A stretch of DNA of 64,000 nt from assembly GCF_964213995.1 (NCBI RefSeq), contig NC_135830.1, positions 10,912,001 through 10,976,000 of the forward strand. The letters run 5' to 3'. Every line of letters begins with the position of its first letter. The stretch's first letter is position 1. The translations under genes were made by a program, and so were the position numbers. The DNA comes from Mustelus asterias. Taxonomy: Eukaryota. The notes beneath the pieces were generated by a model that made no database searches, was not told where the DNA came from, and worked only from the letters and a program-made list of their open reading frames with translations. Positions 11,507 to 62,281 of the stretch are shown here, piece by piece.

Positions 11507-11579
11507 GGCTATGTCGTGTAGTGGTTCTCACGTTCGTTTCACACGCAGAAAATCCCCAGTTCAAGATCGGGCCGAAACA
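11507..11579 (+). pseudogene. tRNA-Val(CAC) pseudogene
   Basis: GTGTAGTGGTTCTCACGTTCGTTTCACACGCAGAAAATCCCCAGTTCAAGATCGGGCCGAAACA. Confidence 0.7.
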
Positions 11580-30295: not shown

Positions 30296-32910
30296 CATAG
30301 AAGCATAGAAAAACAGCTCAGAAACAGGCCTTTTGGCCCTTCTTGTCTGTGCCGAACCATTTTATGCCTAGTCCCACTGACCTGCACTTGGACCATATCC
30401 CTCCACACCCATCTCATCCATGAACCCGTCCAAGTTTTTCTTAAATGTTAAAAGTGACCCCGCATTTACCACTTTATCCGGCAGCTCATTCCACACTCCC
30501 ACCATTCTCTGCGTGAAGAAGCCCCCGCTAATATTCCCTTTAAACTTTTCTCCTTTCACCCTTCAACCATGCCCTCTGGTTTTTTTCTCCCCTAGCCTCA
30601 GCGGAAAAAGCCTGCTTGCATTCACTCTATCTATACCCATCAAAATCTTATACACCTCTATCAAATCTCCCCTCAATCTTCTACACTCCAGGGAATAAAG
30701 TCCCAACCTATTCAATCTCTCTCTGTAACTCAGCTTCTCAAGTCCCGGCAACATTCTTGTGAGCCTTCCCTGCACTCTTTCAATCGTATTTACATCCTTC
30801 CTGTAACTAGGTGACCAAAACTATACACAATACTCCAAATTCGGCCTCACCAATGCCTTATATAACCTTACCATAACACTCCAACTTTTATACTCGATAC
30901 TCCGATTTATAAAGGCCAATGTACCAAAGGCACTCTTTACGACCCTATCCACCTGTGACGTCGCTTTTAGGGAATTCTGTACCTGCATTCCCAGATCCCT
31001 CTGTTCAACTGCACTCTTCAGAGTCCTACCATTTACCCTGTACGTTCTTCTTTGGTTTGTCCTTCCAAAGTGCAATATCTCACACTTGTCTGCGTTAAAT
31101 TCCGTTTGCCATTTTCAGCCCATTTTTCTGGTTGGTCCAAATCCCTCTGCAAGCTTTGAAAACCTTCCTCACTGTCCACTACACCTCCAATCTTTGTATC
31201 ATCAGCAAACTTGCTGATCCAATTTACCACATTATCATCCAGATCATTGATATAGATGACAAACAACAATGGACCCAACACCGATCCGTGCGGCACACCA
31301 CTAGTCACAGGCCTCCACTCAGAGAAGCAATCCTCCACAACCACTCTCTGGCTTCTTCCATTGAGCCAGTGTCTTATCCAATTTACTACCTCCCCATGTA
31401 TACCCAGCGACTGAACCTTCCTAACTAACCTCCGATGAGGGACCTTGTCAAAGGTCTTGCTGAAATCCAGGTAGACAACATCCACCGCCTTCCCTTCATC
31501 CACTTTCCTGGTAACCTCCTCGACAAACTCTAATAGATTGGTCAAACATGACCTACCACGCACAAAGCCATGTTGACTCTCCCTAATAAGTCCCTGTCTA
31601 TCCAAATATTTGTAGATCCTATCCCTTATCACACCTTCCAATAACTTGCCCACCACCGACGTCAAACTTACTGGCCGATAATTTCCGGGATTTCTTTTGG
31701 AACCTTTTTTAAACAACGGAACAACATGAGCCATCCTCCAATCATCCGGCACCTCCCCCGTGAATACTGACATTTTAAATATGTCTGCCAGGGCCCCTGC
31801 AAGTTCAACACTAGCTTCCCTCAAGGTCCGTGGGAATACCCTGTCCGGTCCTGGGGATTTATCCACTCTGATTTGCCTCAAGACAGCAAGCACCTCCTCC
31901 CCTTTAATCTGTAATGGTTCCGTGTCCTCCCTACCAGTTTGACCTATTTCCGTGGACTCCATGCCCGTTTCCTCAGTAAATACGGATGCAAAAAACCCAT
32001 TTAGTATCTCCCCTATCTCTTGTGGTTCCATACACAGTCTACCACTCTGGTCTTCAAGAGGACCAATTTTATCCCTCATTATCCTTTTGCTCCTAACATA
32101 CCTATAGAAGCTCTTTGGATTTTCCTTCACTCTGTCTGCCAAAGCAACCTCATGTCTTCTTTTTGCCCTCCTGATTTCCCTCTTAAGTAGCTTCTTGCAC
32201 TTTTTATACTCCTCGAGCATCTGATCTGTTCCTTGCTGCCTGTACATTTCATACAACTCTCTCTTCCTCTTAATCAGTGTTACAATCTCCCTCGAGAACC
32301 AAGGTTCCTTATTCCTATTTACTTTGCCTTTAATCCTGACAGGAACATACAAACTCTGCACTCTCAAAATTTCTCCTTTGAAGGCCTCCCACTTTCCATT
32401 TACATCCTTACCAGAGAACAGCCTGTGCCAATCCACACTTCCCAGATCCCTTCTCATTTCATCAAATTTGGCCTTTTTCCAGTTCAGAACTTCAACCCGA
32501 GGACCAGGTCTATCCTTATCCACGATCAGGTTGAAACTAATGGCATTATGATCACTGGATCCAAAGTGTTCCCTCACACTCACATCCATCACCTGCCCTA
32601 ACTCATTTCCCAATAGGAGATCCAATATCGCATCCTCTCTAGTTGGCACCTCTATATACTGATGTAGAAAATTCTCCTGAACACATTTTACAAACTCTAC
32701 CCCGTCTAAACCTTTAACAGTATGCGAGTCCCAATCTATATGTGGAAAATTAAAATCTCCTACTATCACAACTTTGTGTTTCTTGCAGTTGTCTGCTATC
32801 TCTCCGCTGATTTGCTCCTCCAATTCTCGCTGACTATTGGGTGGTCTATAATACAAGCCCATTGATGTGGTCATACCTTTCCTGTTTCTCAGCTCCACCC
32901 ATAGGGCCTC
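30296..32910 (-). mobile_element. Young CR1-clade (HER1-like) LINE, 5'-truncated
   Basis: Long ORF2 and a (CTTCTATG)n-type tail at about 30296. Near-identical to the 41935-42783 copy. Confidence 0.95.
31033..32898 (-). pseudogene. LINE ORF2 (partial APE endonuclease + reverse transcriptase), frameshifted near 31110
   Basis: VGDFNFPHIDW, SSDHNAI, KSPGPD, NYRPVSLTS, GVPHGSVLGPLLF and KFADD motifs. One T is missing relative to the 42750 copy. Confidence 0.9.
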
Positions 32911-33111
32911 TGTCGAAGGAATGAGGTCCTCTCAATTCGTGTCTGCAAGCAGAGTCAGCCATTGAAAATGTTTTGATTTACTTGTGAGCCTGCTATGGCG
33001 TTAGAATGTGTTCAGGTTCTCAACCCAAAGCCCATATGAAGCAATCCCGCCGTGTACACGGAAAATAAATTTACAGAACCAGTACCTTGTCCAATTCAAA
33101 ACAGCAGAAAT

Positions 33112-35155: not shown

Positions 35156-35633
35156 CGTCAGTTTAAAAATACAGTTCACCCGTTACCCTTGGAGTTAAGT
35201 GGTTTGTGTTCAGTACCCACCCCTCCCGCTCCCTCCCTGCTGTGTTAATTGCAGGTCAGAAAATGAAGATTTATTGCTCTCGTCCTAACCGTGAAAATAA
35301 ATATCGGCTATTTCTTGGAAGAACAGAGAAATCTCAGTCTCGCTTCGTGTCCGTCCTTTTTGAAGTGAAGACCGTGATCAAATTCAACAGGAAGTTTTAT
35401 TTTCATTTCGCAGGAGATTGGGAAACAGGCGAGGTTAAGGTAGTTTAAATGGTGTCGACCCTTCACTGCAGCTCATTTTGTCTCAGACTGGAGATGGATT
35501 CTATTTGTTACACAGTTCAGGATTACCAGATTCAGCGAAGGAGCAGATTCAAGCCTTCTGATGGCCTTTCCCAGCTCCGTTGCTTCTAATGTATTTCAGT
35601 AACAATAACAGTAAATAACACGCTTACCATGTT

Positions 35634-35716
35634 GTTTAGCGTGGCCGAGTGATCTACGGCGCTGGAAATAATACTCCAGTTTCTGCAAAAAAGTTTCTTC
35701 GAATCCCACAATTGAC
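35634..35716 (+). pseudogene. tRNA-Leu remnant
   Basis: TAGCGTGGCCGAGTGATCTACGGCGCTGGA..CTCCAGT..TTCGAATCCCAC, with flanks paralogous to the 16330 gene. Confidence 0.7.
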
Positions 35717-36569
35717 AGAATTGTTGTTTGCTTTGGCCCTTGCAGCTGAAGATAAACAGTTCAGACTGAATGTAGCAGTGTGGGCGGTGTCGTTCCTGGT
35801 AGGAAAAAAGAGGAGGAACAGTGCCAATGAAACAGTTGTTGGGGGAAAGGAGAATGTTTGGAAGGAGTGCAGTTGCTCCTATAGGGGGAACAAACGGAAA
35901 CACCGGCTGAATGACTGGCTGCCGATATAAGCAACAGTATTGCAAACAGTGAGACTGTATTCCCGGCCCAGGGGTTAAGTTCTGGATAAAAGCAAATTAC
36001 TGCGGATGCTGGAATCTCTGAAAGTGAGTCATCTGGATTCGAAGCTACAGCTCTTTTCTCTCCTTACAGATGCTACCTGACCTGCTGAGGTTTTCCAACA
36101 TTTTCTCATTTGGTTCCAGGGACAAATGTGACGAATTTAGATTTTCCAAGTGAAGTTCAAATCCTGTCCTGTACGCTTCCCATCATTCCTCATTGTGACT
36201 ATGTTTTTAGGGAAAGTCATTTGAATTAAAGCAATGGGTACGAAGATGATCATCTCATTACCAATGTGTCACGTCAGCTTCCCTGAGAGCATAATGATCA
36301 GGATTCGGCGCAGTGGCCCCACGTTCAATTCCCAGTCATGGAGTCAATCATCTTTTGTTCAATTCTTCATTTACTGAAAACACGACTCACAGCGCCTGTG
36401 AAGGGAGAAACAAGGTTAATCTTCCAGCTGGATGAGTTTATATCAGAGCTGGGAAAATCAAACGTGTAACTTTGACAATAAACTCTGAAGAAGAGTCAGA
36501 TGATACACACGACGCACATGTCAAATCTTGTTACTTTCAAGTTGCATATTTTAACTTCCTTCCCCTGTG

Positions 36570-39477: not shown

Positions 39478-39705
39478 AAGCCGCAACACCGCACCAATTG
39501 GCTGCCTGAACACGTCAGAAAGGTTAGCTGGCAATCGCAGTTTGCATGTTGTGTATGGGATTCATGGTCATGTGCTGGTAAATGCGGTAATAGGACGTAT
39601 CAAATTGATTGAATGTGCATCGTACATTTCCATACAGTATAGAATTTGGACGTAATATTCAGCACAAACAAGCCTTCTGATCCTCATTGTGATTGCCGGC
39701 CCCGA

Positions 39706-39751
39706 ACACTATCCGCCAACCTATTACATTTGCTCATGATCCTTCAAACGA
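39706..39751 (+). other. Putative leader exon (L-PART1) of the TCR V gene; ACA at the expected ATG
   Basis: 46 nt encoding (T)LSANLLHLLMILQT plus 1 nt, then donor GTGAGT. Splices in frame (phase 1) to the V exon, giving ..LQTTQS|QLDK. Confidence 0.65.
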
Positions 39752-40155
39752 GTGAGTATTTCGGGCGATTATCACCGTTTTATTTCGTTGATGTTTTTTC
39801 GATTTTCCTCTAATATTTATTCCCCTCATTGGGGAGGCCTGGCTCCTCGAGTTTTGCTCTTGGACCCATGAATGCCCCGAGTCCATTTAATGGAAAATCA
39901 AACTGAACTATCTCAGTCAGAACGGCCGGTCTGGGGGAGGGGTTTTGCTTCCCCGAGAAGGGCAGCCTTGGCTGATGAATGTACCCAGAAGAAAATTGCA
40001 ATGTTAATCGTCTGGGGCCAGTGAGCTCAGGAAATAAATCTCTGAACATTCCCCTATTTTAATTTCACTCACGGAATGCAGTCCATCGCTAAATTTCAGT
40101 AGATTAGTGAATAAGAGCCCGCGTTATTATTTGTATATCTGTCTAAGTGTGTTTT

Positions 40156-40159
<4 letters not shown>

Positions 40160-40205
<46 letters not shown>

Positions 40206-40335
40206 GTGTCTGTCTGTCTGTCTGTGCATATGTTTTTGGCTGTGTGTCTGCGCGTGCCTGACTATGTGTGGATGTCTGTGTGTCTTTGTTTGTGTCCCTG
40301 CGTTTTGTGAGTTTCTGTGCGTGTCGGTGTGTAAC
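40160..40335. repeat. (TG)n microsatellite and TG-rich low-complexity tract in the V-gene intron
   Basis: Direct observation. Confidence 0.95.
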
Positions 40336-40556
40336 TGCACCTGTTTTTGTCTGTAGGAGGGAACCTATGTGGCGAAAGAGAGAATATCTTTTTGTGATTG
40401 TATGTGACAGAAAGAGAGGGAGAGATAATGTGTGTATTTTTGACTGTAAGAGTGTATGCGTTCGAGAGAGAGAAAAATTGTGCTCAAAACGTATTTCATT
40501 TTAAATCAAAAACACATCTAAGAGTTATGTTTGTCACATTCTGTTATTTTTTCCAG

Positions 40557-40864
40557 CGCAGAGCCAGCTGGATAAACTTTTCCAAAAGCCCACAGTAGTT
40601 GCAGTGAGTGAAGGGAGTCCCCTGATGTTGTCCTGTCACTACCCCACCACATACACAGCAGCTTACCCATATTGGTACGTACAGTACTCGGGACAGGGCC
40701 ATCAGTACATGCTGGTCAGACATACTGCTGGTAATGAAGAGAACGCGCCTACATTTGGAAAGCGGTTTTCTGCTGTACAGGATAAAATGAACACAAACAT
40801 CCTTTTGAACATCACAGACACTCAGATTTCTGACTCAGCCGTGTATTACTGCGCGGCGATGAAG
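40557..40864 (+). CDS. T-cell receptor alpha/delta-type variable (V) gene segment, open V exon
   Basis: Acceptor TTCTGTTATTTTTTCCAG. Translation QSQLDKLFQKPTVVAVSEGSPLMLSCHY..YPYWYVQYSGQGHQYML..GKRFSA..LLNITDTQISDSAVYYCAAMK has the 1st Cys, Trp, L-x-I and D-S-A-V-Y-Y-C hallmarks. An RSS follows immediately. Confidence 0.9.
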
Positions 40865-40903
40865 CACCACGTTACATCGAGCCTTAACACTCGTACAAAA
40901 ACT
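40865..40903 (+). other. 23-bp-spacer recombination signal sequence (RSS)
   Basis: Heptamer CACCACG, 23-nt spacer TTACATCGAGCCTTAACACTCGT, nonamer ACAAAAACT. Confidence 0.85.
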
Positions 40904-41934: not shown

Positions 41935-42783
41935 TAGAACCATAGAACCATAGAAAATTACAGCTCAGAAACAGGCCTTTTGGCCCTTCTTGTCTGTGCC
42001 GAACCATTTTATGCCTAGTCCCACTGACCTGCACTTGGACTATATCCCTCCACACCCCTCTCATCCATGAACCCGTCCAAGTTTTTCTTAAATGTTAAAA
42101 GTGACCCCGCATTTACCACTTTATCTGGCAGCTCATTCCACACTCCCACCACTCTCTGCGTGAAGAAGCCCCCCCTAATATTCCCTTTAAACTTTTCTCC
42201 TTTCACCCTTAACCCATGCCCTCGGGTTTTTTTCTCCCCTCGCCTCAGCAGAAAAAGCCTGCTTGCATTCACTCTATCTATACCCATCAAAATCTTATAC
42301 ACCTCTATCAAATCTCCCCTCAATCTTCTACGCTCCAGGGAATAACGTCCCAACCTATTCAATCTCTCTCTGTAACTCAGCTTCTCAAGTCCCGGCAACA
42401 TCCTTGTGAACCTTCTCTGCACTCTTTCAATCTTATTTACATCCTTCCTGTAACTAGGTGACCAAAACTGTACACAATACTCCAAATTCGGCCTCACCAA
42501 TGCCTTATATAACCTTACCATAACACTCCAACTTTTATACTCGATACTCCGATTTATAAAGGCCAATGTACCAAAGGCACTCTTTACGACCCTATCCATC
42601 TGTGACGTCACTTTTAGGGAATTCTGTACCTGTATTCCCAGATCCCTCTGTTCAACTGCACTCTTCAGAGTCCTACCATCCTACGTTCTTCTTTGGTTTG
42701 TCCTTCCAAAGTGCAATATCTCACACTTGTCTGCGTTAAATTCCATTTGCCATTTTTCAGCCCATTTTTCTAGTTGGTCCAAA
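41935..42783 (-). mobile_element. Young CR1-clade LINE 3' fragment (same family as 30296)
   Basis: ORF 42015-42611 and an (GTTCTATG)n tail. Very close to 30296-31142. Confidence 0.95.
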
Positions 42784-43796: not shown

Positions 43797-43813
43797 GTCT
43801 CTGTGGCGCAATT

Positions 43814-43853
<40 letters not shown>

Positions 43854-43870
43854 GAATCCACCCAGGGTCG
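43797..43870 (+). tRNA. tRNA-Asn(GTT), near-intact (one acceptor-stem mismatch)
   Basis: GTCTCTGTGGCGCAATTGGTTAGCGCGTTCGGCTGTTAACCGAAAGGTTGGTGGTTCGAATCCACCCAGGGTCG, with a T8 terminator downstream. Confidence 0.9.
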
Positions 43871-44897
43871 GTGATTTCACTTTTTTTTCTCTCCATCTGC
43901 TTTCATTGTCTCTTCGGTTTTGAGTGTCACTGAGTCCTTGGGCAACACTAAAAAAAGCTTATCGTGTGTTTCTGCCTCTGCTGTTAGCCGACGTTAATTT
44001 ATTGAACATTTATCTCTAACATATTATTTGTAACAATTTATATATTTCAAATATTATTAAACTCAATAACTGAACTCGAAACTTTAACCCATGTTTGATC
44101 TTGGGTTGCCATTATCCTGCACACTCCCCTTCTTTCTCAGATAGATCAGGAATTTGTCTGTCCCAACCTGAAATGTGTTCAACGAGGGAAATACACAGCA
44201 AGTCGGCAATAATCAGTGGAATGAGGACTGAGCTAAACTTTCACCAGAATGCTGTTTTTATAATTGCAACGTCCTGAGATTGAGAGCAGATAATTCACAT
44301 TTGAGTTTCTTTGAGAGAAGAATGCCTGCCGTGTTTTATATGATAAGTTTCACAGGATCAGCAATGATGAGATTGGTGTGTTTTGGAAATTGAAAGTTAC
44401 GCGTGAACAGCTTGTGGGACTATTTCATTTATCATTGCCGTCTTGCGGTGTGTTTTATGTTCTGACAAAACCTTTATTTATAATACACGCATTAGATGGT
44501 GGAAATTCTCAGCAGGTTTGGCAGAATCTGTGGACACGCATCAAATTTTAAACACTTCCATATGTCACCTGTGTTCCTGAAGGATACTGACTATAGTGTT
44601 CAAAAAAACTGACAAAACCTTTTCAAAGCAGCTGTCACATCGCTAAGTGTTATTAAATATTAAGGCATCACATTATTTCACAGCCATGCGGCACTTACAC
44701 TTGCCCAATACTTGAATAATATTCGGCAACTGCAGTCATGGAGAAAGAGATAAAATTCGGGGCAAATGTTACTTTCTGAGTCTTATGTTAGATCAATGAC
44801 TCTGCCACATGGGTAAGGTATTCAACAGAATTAAAATTCTACAAAACAAGTATTTACATTGCAATCTGATATTCTCGGCTGGTCACATTGGTCATGA

Positions 44898-45213
44898 TGT
44901 GGAGATGCCGTCGTTGGACTGGGGTAAACACAGTAAGAAGTTTAACAACACCAGGTTAAAGTCCAACAGGTTTATTTGGTAGCAAAAGCCACACAAGCTT
45001 TCGGAGCTCCAAGCCCCTTCTTCAGGTGAGTGGGAATTATGTTCACAAACAGGGCATATAAGGAGACAAACTCAATTTACATGAATAATGGTTGGAATAG
45101 ATTCCTGGACCTGCAGAGTTTCACTGGCTGTCTTGTCTGGAGACAATACACATCTTTTTAGCCTGTCTTGATGCTCTCTCTACTCACGTTGTTTTGTTTC
45201 TTAAAGACTTGAT
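44898..45213 (-). mobile_element. Short Penelope-terminus insertion with internal inversion and 13-bp TSD
   Basis: TSD ACATTGGTCATGA (44885-44897, 45214-45226). Absent from the paralogous site at about 63325. Matches the 58247 terminus, and the last about 110 bp is an inverted part of it. Confidence 0.85.
44992..45028 (-). ncRNA. Minimal type-I hammerhead ribozyme motif
   Basis: CAC-CUGAAGA-A-GGGGC(UUGGA)GCUCC-GAAA-GC-UU-GUG. Confidence 0.7.
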
Positions 45214-46509
45214 ACATTGGTCATGAGCAGAGTTCCTGGATTGGAGGAGTTAACATGTTCATTTTATATACGATGGGCTCCTCGATTCAAAATAAGGTGG
45301 AAACATAATCAAAATTAATATTTTAAAAAAAATTTCCCTGATTCTAGGTCGGTGTTGCATATGAACTGGATTGGAGCAGACAAAATGTTAATTTGTTCTT
45401 CACCATTTATTTAAAAAATGCCCTCAGCAAAGTCGCCACTGACATACTGTTGCTTTTCTACTTCGACTGTCACACTCACGGTGCAGTTGATGTAGGCTAG
45501 ATGGATTTGCCATGGCAAGTGAGTGATGTTACGGTTATACGGTGACAAAAAGTGCCTCAGTAAGGTACTCTGGGCTAATATTCTCTGGATGATGTTTCAG
45601 CTATTTTTGAATGAGGTACGGAGACATTTTTTCACTCAAAGGCTTGTGAATCTTTGGAATTCTTTGATTTATTATCACATGTATTAGCATACAGTGAAAA
45701 GTATTGTTTCTTACGTGCTTCACAGAGAAAGCATACCGTTCATAGAGAAGGAAATGAGAGAGTGCAGAATGTAGTATTCCAATCAAAGCTAGATTGTAAG
45801 AAATTGATTTAAAGCATTGTTGGAGACTTTAAAATAGTTAGAATGAAGTTTTAGAAGCATAGAACGAGAGTGAAAGATAGAATTAGAAGGTATGCAGGGC
45901 ACAGCTTGCAAGAGGTAGCCTCGCTCGGGCGCCATCCTGCATCAATTCTGTAGCCGCACAGAGGTCTGTGGATCTTCAGTTGATGAAGACGTTGAAGGTT
46001 GAGGTGGAGAGCTGTTGGAATCTAATTGAATGAAGGGCAATCGGGATAAACTGGGAAATTGGAGTTGAGGCTATGGATCTGCCTTTATTCAATCGTGGAG
46101 GAGGCACAATGGAACATGTGACCCAATTCTACTCCATTGACTCTATTCACTGGCAACACCAGATACGGCATCAATAGGTTCTGCTGGTAGAGTTCAGGGC
46201 AGTAATGGTGTGGAGTTGCCGGCGTTGGACTAGGGTAAGCACAGTAAGTAGTCTCACAACACCAGGTTAAAATCCAACATGTTTATTTGGTAGCACAAGC
46301 TTTCCTGTTGGACTTTAACCTGGTGCCGTGAGACTACTTACAGAACAGTAATATTAGTTGAAGCGTGTGTTCGAATCTCACCACTGCTATATGTCCAGTT
46401 AATTAACTTTGCGAAATACCTTTGTTATCACACGAATTCCATGCAACTCAAATGCAAATTATTGTTGGCAATTGTTGGAACCAGTTTCCTTGAATCATTG
46501 CATCGCAAT

Positions 46510-46581
46510 GTTTCTGTGGTGTAGTGGTTGTCACATTGGCCTTATACGCGAAAGGTCCCCCGTTTGATTCCGGCAGAAATA
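46510..46581 (+). pseudogene. tRNA-Val-body pseudogene, anticodon reads TAT
   Basis: GTTTCTGTGGTGTAGTGGTTGTCACATTGGCCTTATACGCGAAAGGTCCCCCGTTTGATTCCGGCAGAAATA. Confidence 0.75.
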
Positions 46582-46599
46582 CTTTCATCATAAAGAGAA

Positions 46600-46805
46600 A
46601 AGGTTGCAAGATCTAAACAAACCTGACAGCATCTGTGGAGAGAGAATAGACCCAACGTTTTAAGTCTGGATGACCCTTCGTCAGAGCTCCGGACTCGAAA
46701 TGTTGGCTCTATTCTCTCTCTACAGAGGCTGTCAGACCTGCTGAGATTTTCCAGCATTTTTTTATTTTTGTTCAGGTTCCAGCATCCGCAGTATTTTGCC
46801 TTCAC
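46600..46805. mobile_element. Palindromic Penelope-derived repeat with degenerate hammerhead
   Basis: Revcomp CTGACGAAGGGTCATCCAGACTTAAAACGTT. Inverted arms. Paralog of 20135-20340. Confidence 0.6.
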
Positions 46806-48109
46806 AGAAACATTTCCAAATGCTTTTAATTTCAGAGGATTCGAGTATTGGAATTAGTTGCGCGTTTGTCACGAAGAAATGAAACGACCTACTGAGTGTT
46901 CCCAGTATTTTCTGATTGCAAAGTCAGGAATCACTCAGTGAAAGGAACAAAAGGAATTTCTGTGATAGATCAGAAGGTAGGATGAATTTCATGACACCAG
47001 GAATGGTGGGCAAGGCAACATTGAGCCAGTGATAGTACGGCCTGGGTGGTCTAGTGGTTCACAGTCAATGTTTCCACCGCTATGGCCCGGAATTAATGAC
47101 AAACTGTTAACTAAACAGAGCACTTTGCTCAGCACGTACTGAATTTCTGGAGTTGAAAGTATCTGAAAATAAAGGAAGAAGACATAATTTACTTCAGTTG
47201 GTTACATGATGTTGGAATGACTGTGTGACAATGTCAGTAACGAAAGTGACCTGAAACGGAGCAGTGAAGACAGAGATGGTTATCAACGAATTTCAAATCT
47301 CTGATATCTGCTTTCCTGGCGTCCCGTGGTTAGGACTCGGCGCCATGTTCCGCGTTGGACTGCCAGGCAAGTAGTGAATAACTTCTTATTTAACTCTTCA
47401 GTAAACGAATTGTCCAACATTATACCCGATGTGCTCCAACCACTGAGATGAATTGTATCAGAGCTGGAAAAATCAGAGATGTAACAACAGCAATAAACTC
47501 TGAAGAAGAATGACACGGCAGACATTTATCACAAAAGCAACTGACACACATGTCAAATCCTTCCTCTTTCAAATCGCATCGATTAACTCCTTGTTCTCCA
47601 CCTCGGATATTTCCACATCCAACAAATATCACCCACCTGAAAATTCAACCTCTTCTTCGCTCCACTGATGATGATACACTAACTCCGCACGAGGCGCAGG
47701 AATTGGCTCCGTGGCTCAGTGGTTGGAGCACATCGGGTATAATGTTGGGCAATTTAAAGGTTTTTTATTAGTGGCACAATTAAGCTTACATTAACACCGC
47801 AATGAAGTTACTGTGAAAATTCCCTCGTCGGCAGAACCGGCACCTTCTCGGGTAAAGTGACAGCTAATTTAGCATGGCAAATGCACCTAACCAGCACATC
47901 TTTCAGTCTGTGGGAGTAAGAAGGAGCACCCGCAGGAAACCCACGCAACACGGGGAAAACATGCAGACTCTGCACAGACAGTAACCAATGCCGGGAATCA
48001 AAACCGGGTCCCTGGCGCTGTGAGGCAGCAGTGCCACCATGTTGCCCAAAAATATATTCTCTTGTTCGTAAATGGAGAAAGAGCAGGCAATGTTTGCAAA
48101 GGTGACCTA

Positions 48110-48470
48110 GTTCTTTATTAATTCATTAGAAATGGGCGTCGCTGGCTAGCCAGCATTTATTGTCCATCCTGGTTGCCCTGGGACAGTTTGGAGTCAACCG
48201 CTTTGCTGCAGCTCTGGAATCAATGTAGGCCATGCCGGATAAGCGACGGCAGATTTCCTTCCCTAAAGCGCATTACCGAACTCCACGTTTATTTTTCCGA
48301 CACTCGACAATGGTTTCATGGTCATCAGTAGATTCTTAATTCCAGATAGTTTTTATTGAATACAAATTGCACAACGTGCCGTGGCAGGATTCAAAACCGG
48401 GATCCCATAAAATTGGGTGAGGTCCTGGATTAATAGTCTCCCGTTAATACCACTAGGCCATCGTCTTTCC
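48110..48470 (-). mobile_element. Deu-domain SINE (SacSINE1-like)
   Basis: GACGGCAGATTTCCTTCCCTAAAG core. The tRNA-like head reads in reverse as ATACCACTAGGCCATCG. Confidence 0.65.
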
Positions 48471-49582
48471 TAGTTATAAGCTTTTATGTTGAAAGAGATT
48501 TGGGTGTGTTTGTACAAGGAACGCAGGAGGATAGCATGGTGGTGCAGCAAACAATAGGAAGAGAAATGGCATTTTGGTCCTTATTGCCAACAGATTGCTG
48601 TATAAGAATAAAAACGCCAATTTACATTTATACAGGATTTTGTTGGGAGCAAGTGTGAAATATTCGGTGCGTTTTTGATATCCACAATGCTTATTTTTAA
48701 AGGCTACCTTTCATTTGGAAACCCTGATGGGTTCCTGATATGAGAGAGTTCACCTGGGATGAGAGTCTGTGTAAATTGGGCTGAAATTCCCTGGAGTTTA
48801 GAATACTGAGAGGCAATCTTATTGAACCGACAGAATACTGAGAGATTGTTTCCCAGTCTCAGATGAGGACGCATCGGAGAACTGACACACAAACACATCC
48901 AGCCAAGACTCTAATTCTTAACTTTAATTGCATATTTGAAATGAATATATATTATACCATGTGATATGTATGATATGAATATTCATTAAATAAATAATGT
49001 TGACAACACCTGACAACAGTCGAGCGGCAACACTTGAGAAATATTTTTATTGTTGCCTAGGTTCACAAGCCGGAACTGCGCGACACTGAATACTTGTGGG
49101 GAAAATAAAAGTACAACCACCCGCCTCTGGATGGTACTGAGCCACCAACCATTTGCTTAAAGTCGAACGCAATAACGAATTCCGCAATTAAGACGAAGAC
49201 ACACTATATTAGGGTGTCAGCGAATGTTGTATATATCCAACCCCAATTCTCTCTTTTTAAAACATAGTCGAGAACTATAACATGACCACATCGTTTACAA
49301 TACTATGCAAGCCCCTTTGACTACTTTACTCCCCACAGTGTTGCAGCGATTTAGTGGTTTCCCGCTTCTCCCAACATGGGAAAGGGCCGTTTGATAGAGC
49401 AGAAAGGGACAAACTGTTTCCACTGACGATTGTCAGTAACCAAATAATTGGGATGGAAGGTAATTTATGAAAGACCGATTTGTATTTATGTGACGCCTTT
49501 CCGGGTTGGTGGACGTCACAATGCGCTTTGCAGCCAAATAAAGACAGTCACAATTGAAACTAAGGTAACAATTAGACAAGGA

Positions 49583-49646
49583 AGGGGGCACTCGGATTGA
49601 AACCGAGGGCCGTTTGATCTGCAGTCTACCACTGAGCTATACCCCC
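49583..49646 (-). pseudogene. tRNA-Cys(GCA) pseudogene with deletion
   Basis: Revcomp GGGGGTATAGCTCAGTGGTAGA(del)CTGCAGATCAAACGGCCCTCGGTTTCAATCCGAGTGCCCCCT. Confidence 0.8.
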
Positions 49647-51414
49647 TCAGCTGTAAGCGAATGCTCTGGATCCAGCATAGTCTTATTAAGTGGTGGAGGG
49701 GGATCCAGTGGTCAGACTGCATCCCGCTTTGTCTCAGAGTTACTGGTTTCTGAGTGAAGTCGGAGAGCTCAGCGTTAACGTTAGCGAGATGTTTTCTTGT
49801 GATTTGGCTGAGATTTGGATCCAGGACTAGGTGATGTTTGTGTCAATCTAATCGATAAAATCTACCCCCTTGTCATACAGATTTGACCTTGTATCCCCAT
49901 CTCTATTGGCAGCGCTTTGCAGCCTATCACTGTCCTTCACTATCTGTGTTTGTTCTTGAACTGTTGCCCATGTGACATTTCCAATTCGGACACAAATATA
50001 GATCGAACTCCACTGCTTCTGACAGAGCTGTTTTCGACCAGGAAACAACTCAGGTTTGTTAAATGGATTATCAAAAACTTTATATCTTGGCGTATCGAAG
50101 CCCGTCTCTGACCCTGAAAGCGCCAAATCCGAAGCACTGGACCACCAGGATTTCATTCTCCTCATTTTCCCATATACTGAATACAAGAATATGCACAGTG
50201 CCAATTATTCACAGTCGCATTCTCCTTCCAGTCTTGTGCACGTTTTTCAGCTTTGAAATTAGTCATCTTTTCACATTAGCTTCCAGTGTGATGAAAGCAG
50301 AGCAGTGATAAGCTGAAGTTTTTCAACAGATTTACCAAAATAAGGTTTAAAACAAACATTACTCTTTGAATATGGTGAGCTACAGTGAAATTTAATGTAG
50401 TAGAAGGTAGCTCATTCATTCTGACAGGAAGTACCAGCAATTGCAAAGTAAGTATGACGTCGAGATACCGGCATTGGACTGGGGTGGGCATAATAAGAAT
50501 TCTCACAGCGTCATGTTAAAGTCCAACAGGTTCATTTGTTCCGATAATAAAATAAATTTGCTGTATTTTATCAGCGCCCCGAAAGCTCCTGACTCCAAAT
50601 AGACCTGGTGTTGTAAGACTTCTCAATGTAAATATGAATTGTTGTGGGTAATTGACAGGATTGTGGAATGGGGCAGATTTTTCCTTCTTCCTGTTGAACC
50701 TGCCACAAGTATCTCTCCCGTTTTCGACCAGGAAGCAATATCCACTCTCCTTAATTCATGTGTTGCACGAGAGCAATGAATCATCATTCCCTAACCGTGA
50801 ATCGAACCCAAACCATGGCAGTTAAAGCAGCGAATTCTATCGACGAAACCAACACGGAAATTGAGGTGACCTGAGCATTATTGAGCAACTGTGGGCGTGT
50901 GTGTGCGTGTGTGATTTGGGAGAAAGGTCACGTGCTCTCGGGTAATCCCTGATGAATGAAGCCTCCGATCTCTTTATCGCTGAGCGTTTTGTGTTCTTGA
51001 GAAATCGTCCTCTGGGGCTGATGCAATGAGGCCAGGAGAGTAACTCACTGCACCGTCTGCAATGTGATTGTGGTGCGATTTGCTGAAAGCTGTTAATTTT
51101 ATAAAAATAATCTTTTTGCGAATTGTAAATGAAATGCCCTTCAGTACCCGGTAAGAATTCGCACAACACCAGGTTAAAGTGCAACGGGTTTGTTTGAAAT
51201 CACGAGCTTTCGGAGCGCATCTCCTTCATCACTCACGCTGAGGATTCACCACATTTTTCTGTCTTTGAATGAAAGCAATATATATCTCGTCAGTTCCCCG
51301 GTATCCTGAGTGTACGACACTGATTTCCACAGTACACTGCTTTAAATGTTTGTTTTCAATGTGAAATTAAGTAGTTTGATTCCATGTGAAGGATTTAAAC
51401 TTACACTCTTCCGG

Positions 51415-51745
51415 GAAGATTGTGACGTAGTGGTAAAATGAGTGGAGTATGAATCCTGTGGCCCAGGCTCAGAGGTCACGATCCCACCGCAGTCTAGAAC
51501 TGAAACGGAAGTGAAAGCTAGTCTCAGTAATGAAGCTTTGTTTTCCGATTGTCATGAAAACACATCTTGCAGAAGGAAATCTGTCATCCCTCTCCTTTCT
51601 GCCCTCCATGGGACTCCATAGGAAAGGCAATGTGATTGACTCTTAACTGCCCTCTGAAATGGTCCAGCAAAATACGCAGTTCAGTGGGAAATAGGGGTGG
51701 ACAACAAATGCTGGCATTGACAATGAAATATATATTGCATTCGCA
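51415..51745 (+). mobile_element. Deu-domain SINE, degraded
   Basis: GAAGGAAATCTGTCATCC..GACTCTTAACTGCCCTCTGAAATGG..ACAACAAATGCTGGC. Confidence 0.6.
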
Positions 51746-52407
51746 GCATTTTAAGAAATGATTAATTCACATTTTGTTTCATTTCATGTCAAACAGGGTG
51801 ACATATTCTGATGTCTCATTATTTAAAACCTCAGCCTTTCAACTGTTCAAACAGGTAAGATTCAGTCAGAGAAAGGTGAACCACTCTGATCCAAAACTAG
51901 GTTTTGTAGTTGCTGCGAATCCCACCTCAAAACAGAAAATGTTGGAAGGACTCATTAGCTTCAACAGCTTCTGTGGAGAGGGAAAGAGAGTGAATGATTC
52001 AGGTTGCTGACCTTTGACCCTAACTGGAAAAAAGTAGTGATTTAATGGTTTACAAACAAGTACAGAGTCAAGGAAAATAGAGAGGGAGAGGAGGAAAGAA
52101 CAAGCGGTCTTTTGATCGGATGGAAGGCTGGAGTGATTGAATTACAATGGAGATGATTATTGTTCCCACTGACACAATCTCGCAGATCTGGGTTTATATC
52201 TAATAATAAATGAGATCAAAACCTCTCGCTGAGTTCAGCGCTAAACTCCCCGCCTTCCAGTGAACTGGAGGCAGTTTTCAGTCACAAACCCACAACTGTG
52301 AGATAAACAACGCAGAAAGGAGAAAGACTCAGTTTGAGCGGTGACACTTCTGGAGGAATGGAGATCTGGAATTCACCCAGGAATGAGGCAAAGTTTAAAA
52401 ACAATGT

Positions 52408-52480
52408 CGCCCAACGTGGGGTTCGAACCCACGACCCTGAGATTAAGAGTCTCATGCTCTACCGACTGAGCTAGCCGGGC
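52408..52480 (-). tRNA. tRNA-Lys(CTT), apparently intact
   Basis: Revcomp GCCCGGCTAGCTCAGTCGGTAGAGCATGAGACTCTTAATCTCAGGGTCGTGGGTTCGAACCCCACGTTGGGCG, with a T5 terminator 7 bp downstream. Confidence 0.95.
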
Positions 52481-55084
52481 ACATGGAGTAACCTGCTTTC
52501 CATAACAAATATGGTTTTTCCATCTGGTGTCTCAGCTTGTTCTGATTTCAAAGTTTACAATGAATCTACTGACATAATCCCCAAAGTTCCTATCCATTCC
52601 TCTCAGTCATTAATAACATTACTCACATGTTGAAATTCTTAGCTTCGCCTCTCCCAAATATTCCAACCTCCTCTAACATCATTCACCTTATTTTTCTTTG
52701 TTCTTAATACTTTAGTCAGGGGTGGAGGGAACTCAACATTTGCACTGTCAAACGGTTTCCCAGTTTCAGACTTTTCAGTAAGATCACCTCTGATAATTCT
52801 AAACTCCAGAGCGAACAGACTCATCCCACTGATTCTCTCCTTGCAGGAGAAACACAGAAATCAATCCAGTGAACCTCGGTTACACACAGACAGCGAAATA
52901 ATGGACAGAGCAAGGAGCAAAATATGTCAACGTAATAAAAACATAGTCAGAGAGTCTGAGGGAGAGATATAGAGACACGAAAAACAGAAATAGCGAGTGT
53001 GGTACACTTCCACAACCCACGAATGAATAACAATAATTACACAGCCAGCTGTCTCAACCAACAAACATGGGGTCCTCTGAACTGGTGAACAGCGATAAAG
53101 TGAATGGCCACAAGCATATTAACAATGAAAATATTTCCATTGACATCCAAAGCTGCTCAGACTTCTGCAGTGAAAGGTGAAAATGCTGGAAAAACTCATA
53201 AAGCCAGACAGCTTGTGTGCACAGGAGAACAAATCTTATATTTTAGCTCCATAACCTTTCATTGGGAATAACTGGGAATTTTTAGAAATGTAGGAAGTTT
53301 TAAACAAGTGTTATCCAGCCGCATAGCAAGAGGGTTTGAGGCCTCTTGCGGGTGTAAATCAGGAGAGATTAAATGAGGGAAACAATGAATTTTAAAGAAA
53401 TTACACCACAGAATGGGGCCATTCCTAAGCCCCTTACAGGACTCAGTTGTGGTGTGGATGAAGGGGAACCTGTGGATGTAATGTACGTAGATTACATTGG
53501 AGCCACAGTGATGAGTTGGTGGGTTTTGAAAATTGAAATTTGCACTTAGGAACATAGAATTAGGAGCAGAAGTGGGCAAATTCAGCGCTTCGAGCCTGAA
53601 CCGTCATGCAATCAGTTCATGACTGATCTCTCCCTGTTCTCAAATCCACCTCCCGACCGGTTCCAATATCCCCTCATCCCTTTAATTATCAGGAATATAT
53701 CTGTCTCTTTCTTGAAATCATTTAATGATTCAGACTCAACCGCGCTATACGGCAATGCATTCCACAAATTCACGACCCTTAGTGAAAAGCAGTTCCTCCT
53801 CATCTCAGTTTTAAATCTACCACCTCTCAACCTATACATTTGACATGGTGTTCCCGATTGCGCATAAGAAAAAAGATTTTACTTTCTTTAATACTATTAA
53901 GAATTTTATAAAGCACGATCACTTCAGCATCTTGTGGGAGTATTTCACCTCACTGTCGATTTCATGTCCCAGCAAGCACAATCGGTGTTGTCATTAGCTG
54001 AAGCAGTCACTTATGTTCCCTCCAAACTGGACACATTCAGGGATATATGGAAAGTCATTTTGAAACACACAGTTCACCCATGACCCTGGGAGTCCAGTGG
54101 GTTGTATTCTGTACTCCCCAGTGTTGTTTGTTTTCAATTCCCGCTCAGGAAATGATTATTTATAGCTCTCGGCAAACTATTAAAAAATAGCCTGATTTAC
54201 TATCTGATCGAAAGCAGATCTACTAATATCAGCCGAGTGAGTTTTGCAAGTTGACATCACAGCTGGAAATGTCACATGTGCAACAGGTCAAAAACACAGT
54301 TGCAAGAAAGACAGTGATCGGCTGGAAAGCGCTGACAACAGAGATGGTGATGTAAGGTAACATTTGGATGGTAAATTGATCAGATTTTGGCGTTCACACT
54401 GAATTATTCAACTTGTCCCTCAATCTGCAACGAAAATATTTGGAAAAGGTTCTCTCCAGTTTCGAACAGTCGGAAGTGAAATTAGTAACTGTAAGTGGAA
54501 TGTCTGTTGTATGTTGTCACTGATTGAATGTATCACTGGGCTGGTAACAGAAAGTGCCATTTTGCAACAGAGACTTGCTTGTGGTGAATGTAGTCTGGCC
54601 TGGCGCGAAAAATAAAGCAACACATGCAGTGTGTGTAAAGCAAGTTGTAAAACAGGCTACAAGCAGCTGATCTGGTGGTTAGAGTCTGACACTTTCACTG
54701 CTGTTTGGATTGGCGGTCAGGTAATGGAGATTTGTTGCTCTCATCCAAACCGTAAAAACAAACGTCAGTTATTGCCTGGTGGAACATGTAAAACACAATG
54801 TCGCCTCGTGTCCTGAAGTGAAGACTGCGCAAATTCAACAGGAGGTTTTTTTTTGTCATTTCTGGCAGGATATTGGGAACCAGACATGGTTAAGGGCAGT
54901 TTAAATGGTGCTGGTCCTTCACTGCAACTCATTCTGTTTCTGACTGGATGTGATTCCTGTTTGTTATACAGTTCAGGATAAATTGATTCAGTGAAGGAGC
55001 AGGCTCAAGCCAACTGATGGACTGTCGCAGCTCCTTTGCTGCCAATTTCAATAACAATGCCAATAAAGGACGCAGCTGCTTACG

Positions 55085-55167
55085 TGGTAACGTAGCCGAG
55101 TAATTTCAGCCAGTGGTTGAAAGTCCAATTTCGACGGAGTTGTTGTTTCGACTGCAGCCACTGCCAG
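55085..55167 (+). pseudogene. tRNA-Leu remnant
   Basis: GGTAACGTAGCCGAGT..CCACTGCCA in flanks paralogous to 16330, 17387 and 35634. Confidence 0.55.
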
Positions 55168-56109
55168 AATGGGTTTGAGTTTTGGTCCCTGCAGCTGAAG
55201 TCCAGCATTTCAGATTGAATGCAAGAATTTGTGTTGTGTCGTTTTTGGCATGAAGAAAGAGGAGCGACAGAGCAATGTAAACAGTTGTTGAGGTAAAGGA
55301 ACGAGTGAGGAAGGAGTGGAGCAAATTATCGTGGATTCTGGTATCGGAAACAAAAAGAGAAAATGCTGGAAAATCTCACCAGCATCTGTAAGGAGTGAAG
55401 AAAGCTGACATTTCGAGTCCAGATGACCCTTTGTCAAAGCTGGGAGGAGTGGAGTTGCTCCGATAGAGAATACAAACGGGAACACCGGTTGAATGGCTGT
55501 CTGTCGAAATAAACAGCAGGATTGCAAACATTGAGACTGCAGTCCCGGCCCAGGGGATGTATTGGGATTTTCAAACTGAGATTCAAATCCTGACGTGCGC
55601 TTCCCGTCATTCCTCATTGTGACTTTTTTTTAAATTGAAAGTTATTGGAAATGAAGCAATGGGTGCAGCTATGATCAACTCCTGCAAAATTGTCACATCA
55701 GCGTCACTGAGGGTCCAGTGATCAGCGTCGGCGCCGTGATGCGGTTTCGTTTCCCAGTCACGGAGTGAATACATTTTTGTTCATTTCTTCATTTAATAAA
55801 AACAGCGTCCGTGAAGGGAACAACAAGCTAAATCTTCCAGCTGGATGAACTTGTATCAGAGCTGGAAAAATCAGAGATGTAACATTGACGATAAACTCTG
55901 AAGAAGAACCACATGACACAAACAACATACATGTCAAGGACATACACAATACACATGTCAAATCATGTCACTTTCAACTTCTGTCTTTTAACTTCCGGCT
56001 CTCCATCTCAGACATTTCCACATTCATCAAAAATCTCCGTCCTCAAACCCCATCCTGGTCCTCGATCCACGGATAATGCTGCACTTACTGAAAACACATT
56101 GCAGCATTT

Positions 56110-56182
56110 GGTTTCATAGCTCAGTGGTTAGAGCACTGGTCCAGTAAACCAGGGGTCGTGAGTTTAATTCTCGCTGGAGCCT
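56110..56182 (+). tRNA. tRNA-Thr(AGT)-like, likely pseudogene (C33, T-loop TTTAATT)
   Basis: GGTTTCATAGCTCAGTGGTTAGAGCACTGGTCCAGTAAACCAGGGGTCGTGAGTTTAATTCTCGCTGGAGCCT. Confidence 0.8.
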
Positions 56183-56289
56183 ATGGACGAAGTTTAGCTT
56201 ATAGAAGCTGTCGGAAAGGGGAAGAAAGTCCCTAAAAATAGAGAGCTTTGATGAGTGGAGGCGCCGATCGGCTGTCGCTTTGGAAAGCG

Positions 56290-57285
56290 AATAGATATTT
56301 CCTTCTTCGTAAAAAAAATAGAAAGAGCAAGACATATTTGAAGAGCTGAAAAAGGTAAGTGTCGATATTGAGCAGAGAATAGATGCGTTTGTACAAGGAA
56401 TGCATAAAGCTGGCATGTAGGTGCAGGCAATGATTGGAAGGAAAATTGCATTTTGGTGTTTATTGACGGCAGACTGGAGTCCAAGTATAACGAGGTGTTG
56501 CTGAAGTTGCACAGGGTTTTGTTGAGACCACATGTTGAATATTCTGTGCAGATATGATATTCACATTTAATAAAGGATATGTTTACATTGGAAACGATGC
56601 AGATAAGGTTCAGCAGATAATCCCTGGGATGAGGGAGTTGCCAATCCAAAGATGTGCGGGTTAGGTTGATTGGCTATGCTAAAATTGCCCCTTAGTGTCC
56701 TGGGATGCATAGAATAGAGGGATTAGTGGGTAAAATATATGGGGGTAGGGCCTGGGTGGGATTGTGGTCGGTGCAGACTTGATGGGCCGAATGGCCTCTT
56801 TCTGTACTGTAGGGTTTCTATGATTTCTATGATTTCTATGTATGATGAGAGGCTGAGCAAATTGGGCTGAAAATCTCTGGAGTTTGGAAGAATGAGAGGC
56901 GATTTCATTAAACCTACACAAGTCTGATTGGGTTTGATAGGGTGGAGACTGAGAGATTTCTTCTGCTTGTCGGGAAATCTAACCCACGGCAGTACAGTCT
57001 CAGGAAAATGGGCTGATCATTTCGGCCTAAGATAAGGAGAAATTACTTCACTGAAATGGTTGTGAATCTTTGAAATTCCCTATGCCAGACAGTTATGGAA
57101 GCTCCATCATCGAATATATTCAAGGTTGGGATAGACAGGTTTCTGGCCTCTCGGGGAATTCAGGGCTATGGGGAGCTGGTGAAAAACTGAGTTGTACCCC
57201 AAGATCAGCCATCACGGTACTGAATTTCGGGAACACGCTCGATGGACCGAGTGGTCTACTCCTGCTCCGATTTATTGTGTTCATG
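56290..57285 (+). mobile_element. Old CR1 LINE 3' fragment interrupted by a 5'-truncated HE1 SINE (about 56646-56843)
   Basis: Degenerate CR1 3' sequence. HE1 tail (ATTTCTATG)n ends at about 56843. Confidence 0.75.
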
Positions 57286-58340
57286 TGGATGATCAAGCTA
57301 ATAATTCATGTTAAAATAAAAACAGAAAGTGCTGGAAGTTCTCAGCAGGTATTGCAGCAAATGTGAATCGGACAGAGAGTTAAGGTTCTCAGTCTAATAT
57401 GGCTCTTTTTAAACTGGCAACTGAGTGTGAGTTACAACAATTAGCACAATATCGAGACAGGGAATTGAATTGAATCCAGGCAGTGAAAGCCCTGAATTTA
57501 AACTCCTGTATTATTTCGGCAGTAAACTTGTTCTGGAGACTGACCTGCCAATTGAAAGTGTGGAGGTTTGAGAGCACCCCGAGCCAAATGGACTCCCGCT
57601 ATTCCTGTTTCTGCTTATATTCCCGACACAGATTTACTTTGTGCCCTTCTGTAACAGTGAAATATTGTCCAAACTTTGTCAGTCTTGCTGTTATTCAGTA
57701 AATTACCATACTGTTATGATACATAGGCTCATCCCCTTTATCTCACATCGTAATCTGGAAAAACTATTTGTGAAACTGCGAACTGTTTTTTATTAACGTT
57801 CAGAGGCTTATTAATGATAAAAATTCCTGTCACTCACTTTGAGTGAATAATCAACAAGCTATTTTATTCAAATAACCAAGAACATTAAGTAAACAAGTAA
57901 AACATGTGAATTAAGGTACGGTTCGACTGAAATGCTGTTCAAATAATACTAGGAACATTCATTACCAATACTGTAATAACAGAATTTCAGTCACTCTCAA
58001 AGAAATTATACAAACAGCCTCGATGGGATTCAGAAGATTTTGGAGTTCTGCAGTAGTTGTGCGGTCTGTAAGGTCTTTCTAACTCCGTATCCTTCGGTTA
58101 GATAGTTTTCTTAAGCGAATTTTAATCTGTCAGGGGTGGAGAACTGCTGCAGAGGCAAATGTTTTTTTGACTGGCTGCCCTGGCCTCTGGAGATGGTCAC
58201 CCAAGATATTATCGAGCGATGGTTGTTCCTCTGGCCTTTTTTTACCTGATGTGGAGATGCCGACGTTGGACTGGGGTAAACACACTGAGAGTTTTAACAA
58301 CACCAGGTTAAAGTCCAACAGGTTTATTTGGTAGCAAATG

Positions 58341-58377
58341 CCATTAGCTTTCGGAGCGCTGCCCCTTCGTCAGATGG
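58341..58377 (-). ncRNA. Minimal type-I hammerhead ribozyme in the Penelope terminus
   Basis: CCAU-CUGACGA-A-GGGGC(AGC)GCUCC-GAAA-GC-UA-AUGG: intact core, stem I CCAU/AUGG, stem II, and palindromic AGCU stem III. Confidence 0.8.
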
Positions 58378-59422
58378 AGTGGATATCTGCTCGCAAACAA
58401 GGCACACAGAGACAGAAAATCAAGTTAAAGAATACTGATTAGAATGCCAATCCTGACAGCCAACCAGGCCTTAAAGGGACAGACAATGTGAGTGGAGGGA
58501 GCATTAGGCACAGGCTAAAGAAATGTGTATTGTCTCCAGACAGGAGAGCCAGTGAGATTCTGCAAGTCCAGGAGGCAAGCTGTGGGGGTTACCGAAAGTG
58601 TGACATGAATCCAATATCCCGGTTGAGGCCGTCCTCTTGTGTGCGGAATTTGGCTATCCATTTCTGCTCAGCGACTCTGCGCTGTCGTGTGTCGTGAAGG
58701 CCGCCTTGGAGAACGCTTATCCGGAGATCAGAGGCTGAATGCCCGTGACCGCTGAAGTGCTCCCCCACAGGAAGAGAACAGTCTTACCTGGTGATTGTCG
58801 AGCGGTGTTCATTCATCCGTTGTCGTAGCGTTTGCATGGTTTCCCCAATGTACCATGCCTCGGGACATCCTTTCCTGCAGCGTATCAGGTAGACAACGTT
58901 GACCGAGTTGCAAGAGTAGGTACCGTGTGCCTGATAGATACTGTTCTCACGTGCGATGATGGCATCCGTGTCGATGATTCGGCACGTCTTGCAGAGGTTG
59001 CTGTGGCAGGGTTGTGTGGTGTCATGGTCACTGTTCTTCTGAAGGCTGGGTAGTTTGCTGCGGACAATAGTCTGTTTGAGATTGTGCGGTTGTCTGAAGG
59101 CAAGAAGTGGGGGTGTGGGGATGGCCGTGGCGAGATGTTCGTCTTCATCAATGACATGTTGAAGGCTCCGGAGGAGATGCTGTAGCTTCTCCGCTCCGGG
59201 GAAGTACTGGACGACGAACGGTACTCTGTGCACCGTGTCCCATGTTTGTCTTCTGAGGAGGTCGGTGCGGTTTTTCACTGTGGCGCGTCGGAACTGTCGA
59301 TCGATGAGTCGAGCGCCATATCCTGTTCTTATGAGGGCATCTTTCAGCGTCTGGAGGTGTCTGTTGCGATCCTCCTCATCAGAGCAGATCCTGTGTGTAC
59401 GGAGCGCTTGTCCGTATGGGAT

Positions 59423-59767
59423 GGCGGCACGGTAGCACAGTGGTTAGCACTGCTGCTTCACAGCTCCAGGGACCTGGGATCGATTCCCGGCTTGGGTCAC
59501 TGTCTGTGTGGAGTTTGCACATTCTCCTCGTGTCTGCGTGGGTTTCCTCCGGGTGCTCCGGTTTCATCCCACAGTCCAAAGATGTGCGGGTTATGTTGAT
59601 TGGCCATGCTTAACAATTGCCCTTAGTGTCCTGAGATGCATAGGTTAGAGGGATTAGTGGGTAAATATGTAGGGATATGGGGGTAGGGCCTGGGTGGGAT
59701 TGTGGTCGGTGCAGACTCGATGGGCCGAATGGCCTCTTTCTGTACTGTAGGGTTTCTTTCTATGATT
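59423..59767 (+). mobile_element. HE1-type SINE inserted in the Penelope ORF
   Basis: Full-length match to the 8282 element. Confidence 0.92.
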
Positions 59768-61409: not shown

Positions 61410-61499
61410 GGGCTTGTCTGGGATATGAACCCAGGGCCTCTCGCAAACTGGCAAATCATAACACCCAAAGCGAGAATCATACCCCTAGACCAACGAGCC
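61410..61499 (-). tRNA. tRNA-Pro(TGG), full length, with 18-nt intron-like insertion (61446-61463)
   Basis: Revcomp GGCTCGTTGGTCTAGGGGTATGATTCTCGCTTTGGG-tgttatgatttgccagtt-TGCGAGAGGCCCTGGGTTCATATCCCAGACAAGCCC. A58T and one acceptor mismatch may impair function. Confidence 0.9.
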
Positions 61500-62069
61500 A
61501 CTGCTGCAAGGTGCGCTCAAATACAGATATTATATTGCCATCCGAATCTGATCTGACAACTGCAGTGGAAGTTGGAAGCGCTGGAAAAACTCAGGAAGCC
61601 AGGCAGCATGTGCACACAGGGAAAGGAATCTCCTCTTACACCTGCATAACTTTTCTTTTCAACGGGTAAAGGTTGGAAATGTAGGAAGTTTTAAACAAGT
61701 GAAATCCAGGAGGTAGAAAGCATAACAACAGGAAACAGCTCTGATAAGGAACAATTCAGGAGAGATAAATGAACAAGTACTGTGTAGTCCATGGCCTGAG
61801 AGTGAGGAAAGCAGAGTATCACAGAATGTCTGCACCGCAGCATGAGACCATTCACAAGATATTTTAAGCAGTCGCGTGTCCTGTGGATAATAGGGAGCCG
61901 GTGGGTGTACTGTACAGTGATTACACAGAATAAATGCAATTATTTCATGATCTTCATTCCAAGTCCTCTGTTACTGAGCCCAGTCAGTGGGAACAGTCTG
62001 TCCCTCCCTGCTGTTTCAAACGGCCCTTTTCCATGTTAGGAGAAGGGATTAACCATTACACCACAACAA

Positions 62070-62248
62070 CACTGTGGGGTAAAATAATAAAATATACATG
62101 TTTAGATTTGTAAACGATGCCATCATTTGGTCTTTCTGTGTCAGGTTTGGTGAAAATTGAATTGGCGTCTAACTTGCAGCCAACACGCTGTCACCCTGAT
62201 TTAGGATGCCTTGTAAGTTCCAGTTCTGTCAGTCTCTGTGGCGCAATT

Positions 62249-62281
<33 letters not shown>

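Follow-up and report, generated by a model that had tools for sequence, protein, structure and literature searches.

Does a T-cell receptor (TCR) V segment that seems to stand alone among tRNA genes in the shark Mustelus asterias belong to a receptor locus, and can it still give a chain? The window, a stretch of 64,000 nucleotides on contig NC_135830.1 (C71 below), had been described as carrying a solitary TCR alpha/delta-type V gene inside a tRNA array, either an orphon or a distal member of a TCR alpha/delta locus interleaved with tDNA. We find that the segment (window V) is itself ordinary and probably dead. More interesting is what it led to in its neighbourhood, a cluster-like, multiplied TCR-delta and a probable germline V–D joint (Table 1).

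Table 1. Positions of receptor segments and tRNA genes; numbers without a contig name are window coordinates.
Feature	Position	Strand	Description
Second TRAV/DV pseudogene	295–1195	−	Leader 1195–1150, starting ATT; exon 622–334 with frameshift and TGA
23-RSS of second V	333–295	−	CACAGAG/ACAAAAACT, good
Upstream tRNA group	8114–19316		6 places: Tyr-like with intron, Asn, Gln, Leu (two), Glu; some decayed
Leader exon of window V	39670–39751	+	27 codons + 1 nt, by paralogue alignment
Intron of window V	39752–40556	+	805 bp, GT-AG, phase 1, holds a GT microsatellite
V exon P0001, TRAV/DV type	40557–40864	+	Open, ends YYCAAMK, without J motif
23-RSS of window V	40865–40903	+	Heptamer CACCACG, spacer 23, nonamer ACAAAAACT; nonamer good
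Downstream tRNA group	43797–62305		7 places: Asn (two), Ile/Val-like, Cys-like fragment, Lys, Thr, Pro/Gln-like; some decayed
Germline VDJ-joined IgM gene	86.6–99.5 kb		46 kb downstream of window V
Three TCR-type Vs	106–111.8 kb	+	Two visibly broken; one with damaged end and RSS
Six J-delta motifs	111.9–124.0 kb	+	Two open with near-consensus 12-RSS
C-delta exon	131.4 kb	+	Open, followed by its transmembrane exon
TCR-alpha J-C locus 1	C71:18.37–18.43 Mb		34 J-alpha motifs, open C-alpha and transmembrane exons
TCR-alpha J-C locus 2	C546:150–242 kb		125 J motifs, open C and transmembrane exons, 78–92% alike locus 1
L013 (L103)	C71:19,223,494–19,221,658	−	Sole intact V-family member among the copies found; 27-residue leader, non-consensus heptamer CACCACG
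C138 cassette (L149–L151)	C138		Ig-V/D/J/C-delta unit: open VH-like segment with 23-RSS ~430 bp before D-delta
C436, C119 and C96 cassettes (L131–L139)	C436, C119, C96		NAR-TCR supporting-V-like segment genomically joined to D, before J-delta and C-delta

The V segment, its leader and its signal

Window V has the architecture of a rearranging TRAV/TRDV gene, with a split leader, a phase-1 intron and an exon bearing two cysteines and a tryptophan. Its exon keeps both cysteines and the WY tryptophan, matches the Pfam V-set domain (E 3.8e-17) and, as in rearranging TRAV/TRDV segments, runs from YYC into a 23-spacer RSS without any J; the heptamer is weak. Intron, open exon and 23-RSS were as originally predicted, and a leader exon is indeed present, but not with the predicted start: position 39706 has no ATG, and the exon begins at 39670 with AAG. 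In the paralogue alignment, ATG stands at this codon in 15 of the 23 paralogues with an aligned leader, and AAG recurs in the two nearest relatives of window V. A Leu-to-His change interrupts the hydrophobic core, and the sole other in-frame ATG, with none before codon 23, would leave a five-residue leader (MILQT). With AAG at 39670, window V lacks the initiation ATG and intact signal peptide of a functional TRAV/TRDV gene. The idea that the family was dead at birth, with an ATA start in all copies, was dropped after an upstream ATG was found in paralogues.

The RSS scores 11.7 bits, below all 21 dense-array 23-RSSs used as reference (16.6–29.5 bits), and ranks fourth among the 2180 CAC sites of the 64-kb window. 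Its heptamer CACCACG occurs in none of 30 compared RSSs. Both heptamer and nonamer are identical in the intact paralogue L013; because L013 shares CACCACG, the weak heptamer is no sign of decay in window V. Weak as it is, the RSS is genuine and goes back to the ancestor of the V family.

The alpha/delta-type assignment is probably right. In the tree, the V family forms a clade among TCR Vs (100/100), but with only 82/87 support for its split from VH, and the next genome matches are dense-array Vs at about 40% identity. Among solved structures (PDB), TCR alpha chains lead the single-V matches to P0001, and multi-domain antibody constructs stand higher by summed score. Searches for homologous proteins with P0001 and with a longer form of L027 returned no matches. 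Having an RSS, two exons and no fused J (FGxG), window V is unlike the non-rearranging VJ genes UrIg, UrIg2 and NKp30. The supporting V-delta of NAR-TCR is a leaderless V with an extra cysteine that sits behind the NAR V; window V, with its leader exon and without an additional cysteine, stands apart from supporting-V-like rows in the tree and is not such a segment. Contigs of four public runs over window V contain one intronic skip and no V(D)J joint; these contigs include the intron, mix paralogues and have no bearing on rearrangement, and their depth is no measure of copy number.

Far from solitary, window V belongs to a family with at least 24 close copies in the genome (64–100% identity; best 150 of 1612 candidates scored), six of them on C71 and the others on further contigs. 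The exon is open in 5 of the 24 copies found, and ATG, donor, acceptor, open exon and RSS coincide in one, L013, which lies inverted 0.8 Mb beyond C-alpha on C71 (19.22 Mb); each of the other 23 listed copies is disabled by some lesion. The dN/dS of window V reaches at least 0.9 in 9 of the 14 pairs compared; the remaining 5 give 0.28–0.77, and the counts are small and the pairs not independent. Since the start ATG is lost and only one of the 24 listed copies is intact, we call window V a TRAV/DV pseudogene. With good confidence we regard it as a start-less pseudogene, in a region of a type already known, its open exon and intact splice sites being the counterpoints. The gene is probably inert because of the lost start codon and not because of distance from a receptor locus. 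Window V would be a non-coding passenger copy, likely from segmental duplication in the shark antibody/TCR gene complex. Within that complex, tRNA genes and zinc-finger arrays likely multiplied along with IgM clusters and TCR pieces. If RAG uses its weak RSS, the product would be without a signal peptide and non-productive.

Neighbouring receptor segments and tRNA genes

The original prediction saw no other V in 64 kb, yet a second, broken V lies near the window's start, and two more occur upstream of the window, at most 4.3 kb away. Downstream of window V on the plus strand follow an IgM gene, open J-delta at 73–83 kb, C-delta at 91 kb and J-alpha/C-alpha at 7.4 Mb, so that J and C segments of TRD and TRA are linked to it in usable orientation; the delta (J-C) cassette spans 71–91 kb downstream on the same strand. 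The proposed check of chromosomal position against TRAC and TRDC places all of them on one contig and strand, and the notion of an orphon far from any receptor locus falls. Membership of a TCR alpha/delta region interleaved with tDNA is borne out by C71, on which C-delta and C-alpha are accompanied by J arrays and by IgM clusters. This contig also bears many C1-set exons, of which those inspected are of IgM type. No class II-looking C1 exon was identified on C71 among the best 150 scored matches, most of them untranslated; what we take to be class II-looking C1 exons lie on C8. The C-delta and C-alpha labels are defined by similarity to the C regions of the unnamed proteins P0027 and P0032 together with D segments or long J arrays, and lean partly on motifs that we presume to be diagnostic.

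Joining of window V to IgM D segments was considered and rejected: the downstream IgM gene is already VDJ-joined in the germline, and 144 kb scanned held no 12-RSS with three or fewer mismatches. In that IgM gene (L067/L068, C71:10,998,600–11,011,500), framework 1 of the V holds an inverted copy of about 155 bp of the gene's own 5' region, leader and intron start, still in frame and lacking in the 4.73 Mb twin.

The region around window V is the elasmobranch antigen receptor complex, in which TCR Vs and pseudogenes have been reported among IgM clusters in four species (Flajnik et al. 2025, PMC12227049). IgM miniclusters with germline-joined VDJ, together with NAR-TCR-like segments, would by themselves suggest an elasmobranch. 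As in that report's account, TCR-type Vs lie here between IgM clusters over megabases, on a contig that also carries TCR alpha/delta C; the two TCR-alpha J-C loci are a difference. The main text of that paper makes no mention of tRNA or zinc-finger content, and titles and abstract openings in the literature gave no report of tRNA clusters in the shark antigen receptor complex. Window V resembles V orphons as IMGT and PMC7555362 present them, in being a duplicated V segment unable to give a chain; the orphons in that paper's account lie outside the locus, whereas window V shares its contig with the locus and has usable J segments 73 kb away.

ARAGORN and Rfam each called 11 tRNAs in the window, 13 places in union. 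The description "inside a tRNA array" is accurate as to tRNA genes on both sides, less so as to density: window V sits in a 24-kb gap between the nearest tRNAs, at 19316 and 43797, and the array is not tight. Two diverged copies of an ORF-like stretch (35586–36063 and 55210–55629) suggest an older internal duplication of a tRNA-bearing unit. Elsewhere in the window, broken ORFs with weak DUF4371 matches (5123–7305) presumably stem from a decayed hAT-type transposase, and reverse-transcriptase-like ORFs and fragments on the minus strand (31033–32931, 42015–42680 and 58784–60720) are ones that we take to be of LINE and Penelope types.

The V-to-D junction and the multiplied C-delta gene

A 124-kb block containing window V, the tRNAs and the IgM gene (−12.5 to 111.8 kb in window coordinates, the extent fetched) has an inverted twin at C71:4.70–4.81 Mb. 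Likeness between the two is 99.4% across 65.7 kb and about 98% towards the block end, and it stops at a single base, C71:11,023,768 (L081, L227), 71 kb downstream of window V. Past this break, four further V bases and then a 23-RSS follow in the twin, whose V is unjoined. In the window-side copy, what follows is the end of a D-delta segment (its last 11–12 bases) with the 23-RSS on its 3' side. The junction lies 4 nt inside the V coding end and 3–4 nt inside the D coding end. The same D remains unjoined and retains its 5' 12-RSS in three sister cassettes (on C90, C110 and C111), whose likeness to the window-side delta cassette is 99% over 22 kb.

With its break no more than 4 nt from either coding end, the junction resembles a RAG coding joint, and RAG likely made it, probably in the germline. 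The junction was found once in the assembly, so its germline origin is what we infer, and the sequence might instead be a somatic rearrangement captured by the assembler. The joined V and the unjoined twin V carry the same stop and frameshift, and the only D found in the window-side delta cassette is the one already joined. The joint would have fused the window V block to the delta cassette, two different segmental duplicates, and would thereby have left window V oriented for joining by deletion relative to J-delta and C-delta. For Ig genes of sharks, RAG acting in germ cells has been reported (Lee et al. 2000, PMC2193156). Like the RAG-type germline-joined Ig genes described there, this is a trimmed-end coding joint fixed in genomic DNA; compared with the Ig joints in that account, a TCR V is joined here to D-delta across two segmental duplicates, and the V was broken before joining.

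Scoring of all 47 candidates yielded 19 C-delta exons genome-wide with 19 matching transmembrane exons. Three of the C-delta copies lie on C71 and are 96.7–98.1% alike. Exon 1 and the transmembrane exon are open with splice sites in all 15 copies examined of the 19; these 15 hold 13 distinct exon-1 sequences and, with flanks, are 79–99.8% alike. Upstream DNA is present for 14 copies, with a D bearing both RSSs in 10 and a V–D joint in 4; one of the 14, C138, has a VH-like segment directly before the D, and the cassettes on C436, C119 and C96 carry NAR-TCR supporting-V-like segments (Table 1). The pN/pS of exon 1 is 0.31–1.30 (six pairs). The connecting-peptide exon was not located in the C-delta copies inspected, which leaves full C-delta integrity unproven. 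Some near-identical copies may be alleles, and the true number may thus be nearer 10.

Units of TCR-delta-related D, J and C segments also occur as repeated clusters, some with a pre-joined V, in the TCR-mu of marsupials and monotremes. The shark D-J-C units resemble this multi-cluster arrangement; unlike TCR-mu, they are ordinary C-delta copies, and no second V domain was seen in the cassette next to window V. C-delta is usually described as a single gene; TCR-delta of the nurse shark is given as single-copy (PMC1513397, Table 2), and a review describes shark TCR genes as translocons (PMC6795676). Table S1 of PMC12227049, built on automated gene models that may miss copies, contains no multiplied C-delta in its four species, as against 19 C-delta exons here. 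Titles and abstract openings in the literature gave no report of a multiplied shark C-delta; older horn-shark TCR papers may already describe extra C genes.

Alternative readings and significance

Window V could still work, as an outlying V of a small TCR-delta locus. It would start translation upstream or at a codon other than ATG and join by deletion to J-delta 73–83 kb downstream, with removal of the IgM gene. The intact splice sites and open exon, the retained CAC and nonamer, and two open J with near-consensus 12-RSSs plus an open C-delta on the same strand all fit this reading. We consider it unlikely, given the damaged leader (the His in its core, no in-frame ATG before codon 23), an RSS below all 21 references, dN/dS values in which purifying selection is not clear, and a cassette whose only D found is already joined. 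Slightly less likely again is an ancient linkage in which the tRNAs flank window V because they serve antigen-receptor loci as insulators or accessibility elements, as had been proposed with the human tRNA clusters at 14q11.2 and in the extended MHC as parallels. Under the same ARAGORN settings, the density around window V (11 in the 64-kb window, 19 in 224 kb) matches that of C71 at large (17 in 200 kb over twenty hand-picked stretches), and tRNAs are few in D-J-C delta cassettes (0 in 434 kb) and J-alpha regions (2 in 199 kb), with 3 in 120 kb of dense V contigs. What speaks for the proposal is the contrast between C71 and large chromosomes, where sixteen stretches held no tRNA in 160 kb and Rfam on 15 stretches per set agrees (9 on C71, 0 on large chromosomes). 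The C71 tRNAs are, however, confined to 5 of the 20 stretches (against 0 of 16, Fisher p 0.053), several copies are decayed, and zinc-finger arrays in 7 of the same 20 point to a chromosome of general tandem duplication. Because tDNA is a trait of the whole duplication-rich contig and scarce in D-J-C and J-alpha regions, nothing ties the tRNAs to window V.

The least probable alternative is that the multiple V and C-delta copies and the V–D junction are assembly artefacts such as haplotigs, mis-joins or a somatic molecule. An assembly of 5313 contigs, with many copies on unplaced contigs, some 99.5–99.8% alike, and a junction seen once would allow for this. It is opposed by the divergence of the three C-delta copies on C71 itself, by the 13 distinct sequences among 15 exons and by a junction that respects both coding ends. 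In addition, contigs of the four public runs agree with the assembly's paralogues at 25 of 27 listed differences over the C-delta exon region.

Reading window V as a pseudogene within a multiplied TCR-delta region, we put forward tentatively, as a model with nearly an even chance, that TCR-delta in this shark has passed from one translocon to about 10–19 working D-J-C miniclusters, accompanied by a second TCR-alpha J-C locus and mixed with IgM clusters. Germ-cell RAG would still be building clusters, each time linking a V from one duplicate to a D from another; an example would be the joint through which window V, the tRNA array and IgM came to lie before C-delta. Should the C-delta units prove functional, the division of shark receptor genes into clustered Ig and translocon TCR would not be fixed, and allelic exclusion among many delta units would become testable. 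The V–D joint would then show that RAG has recently altered a germline chromosome at a TCR locus.
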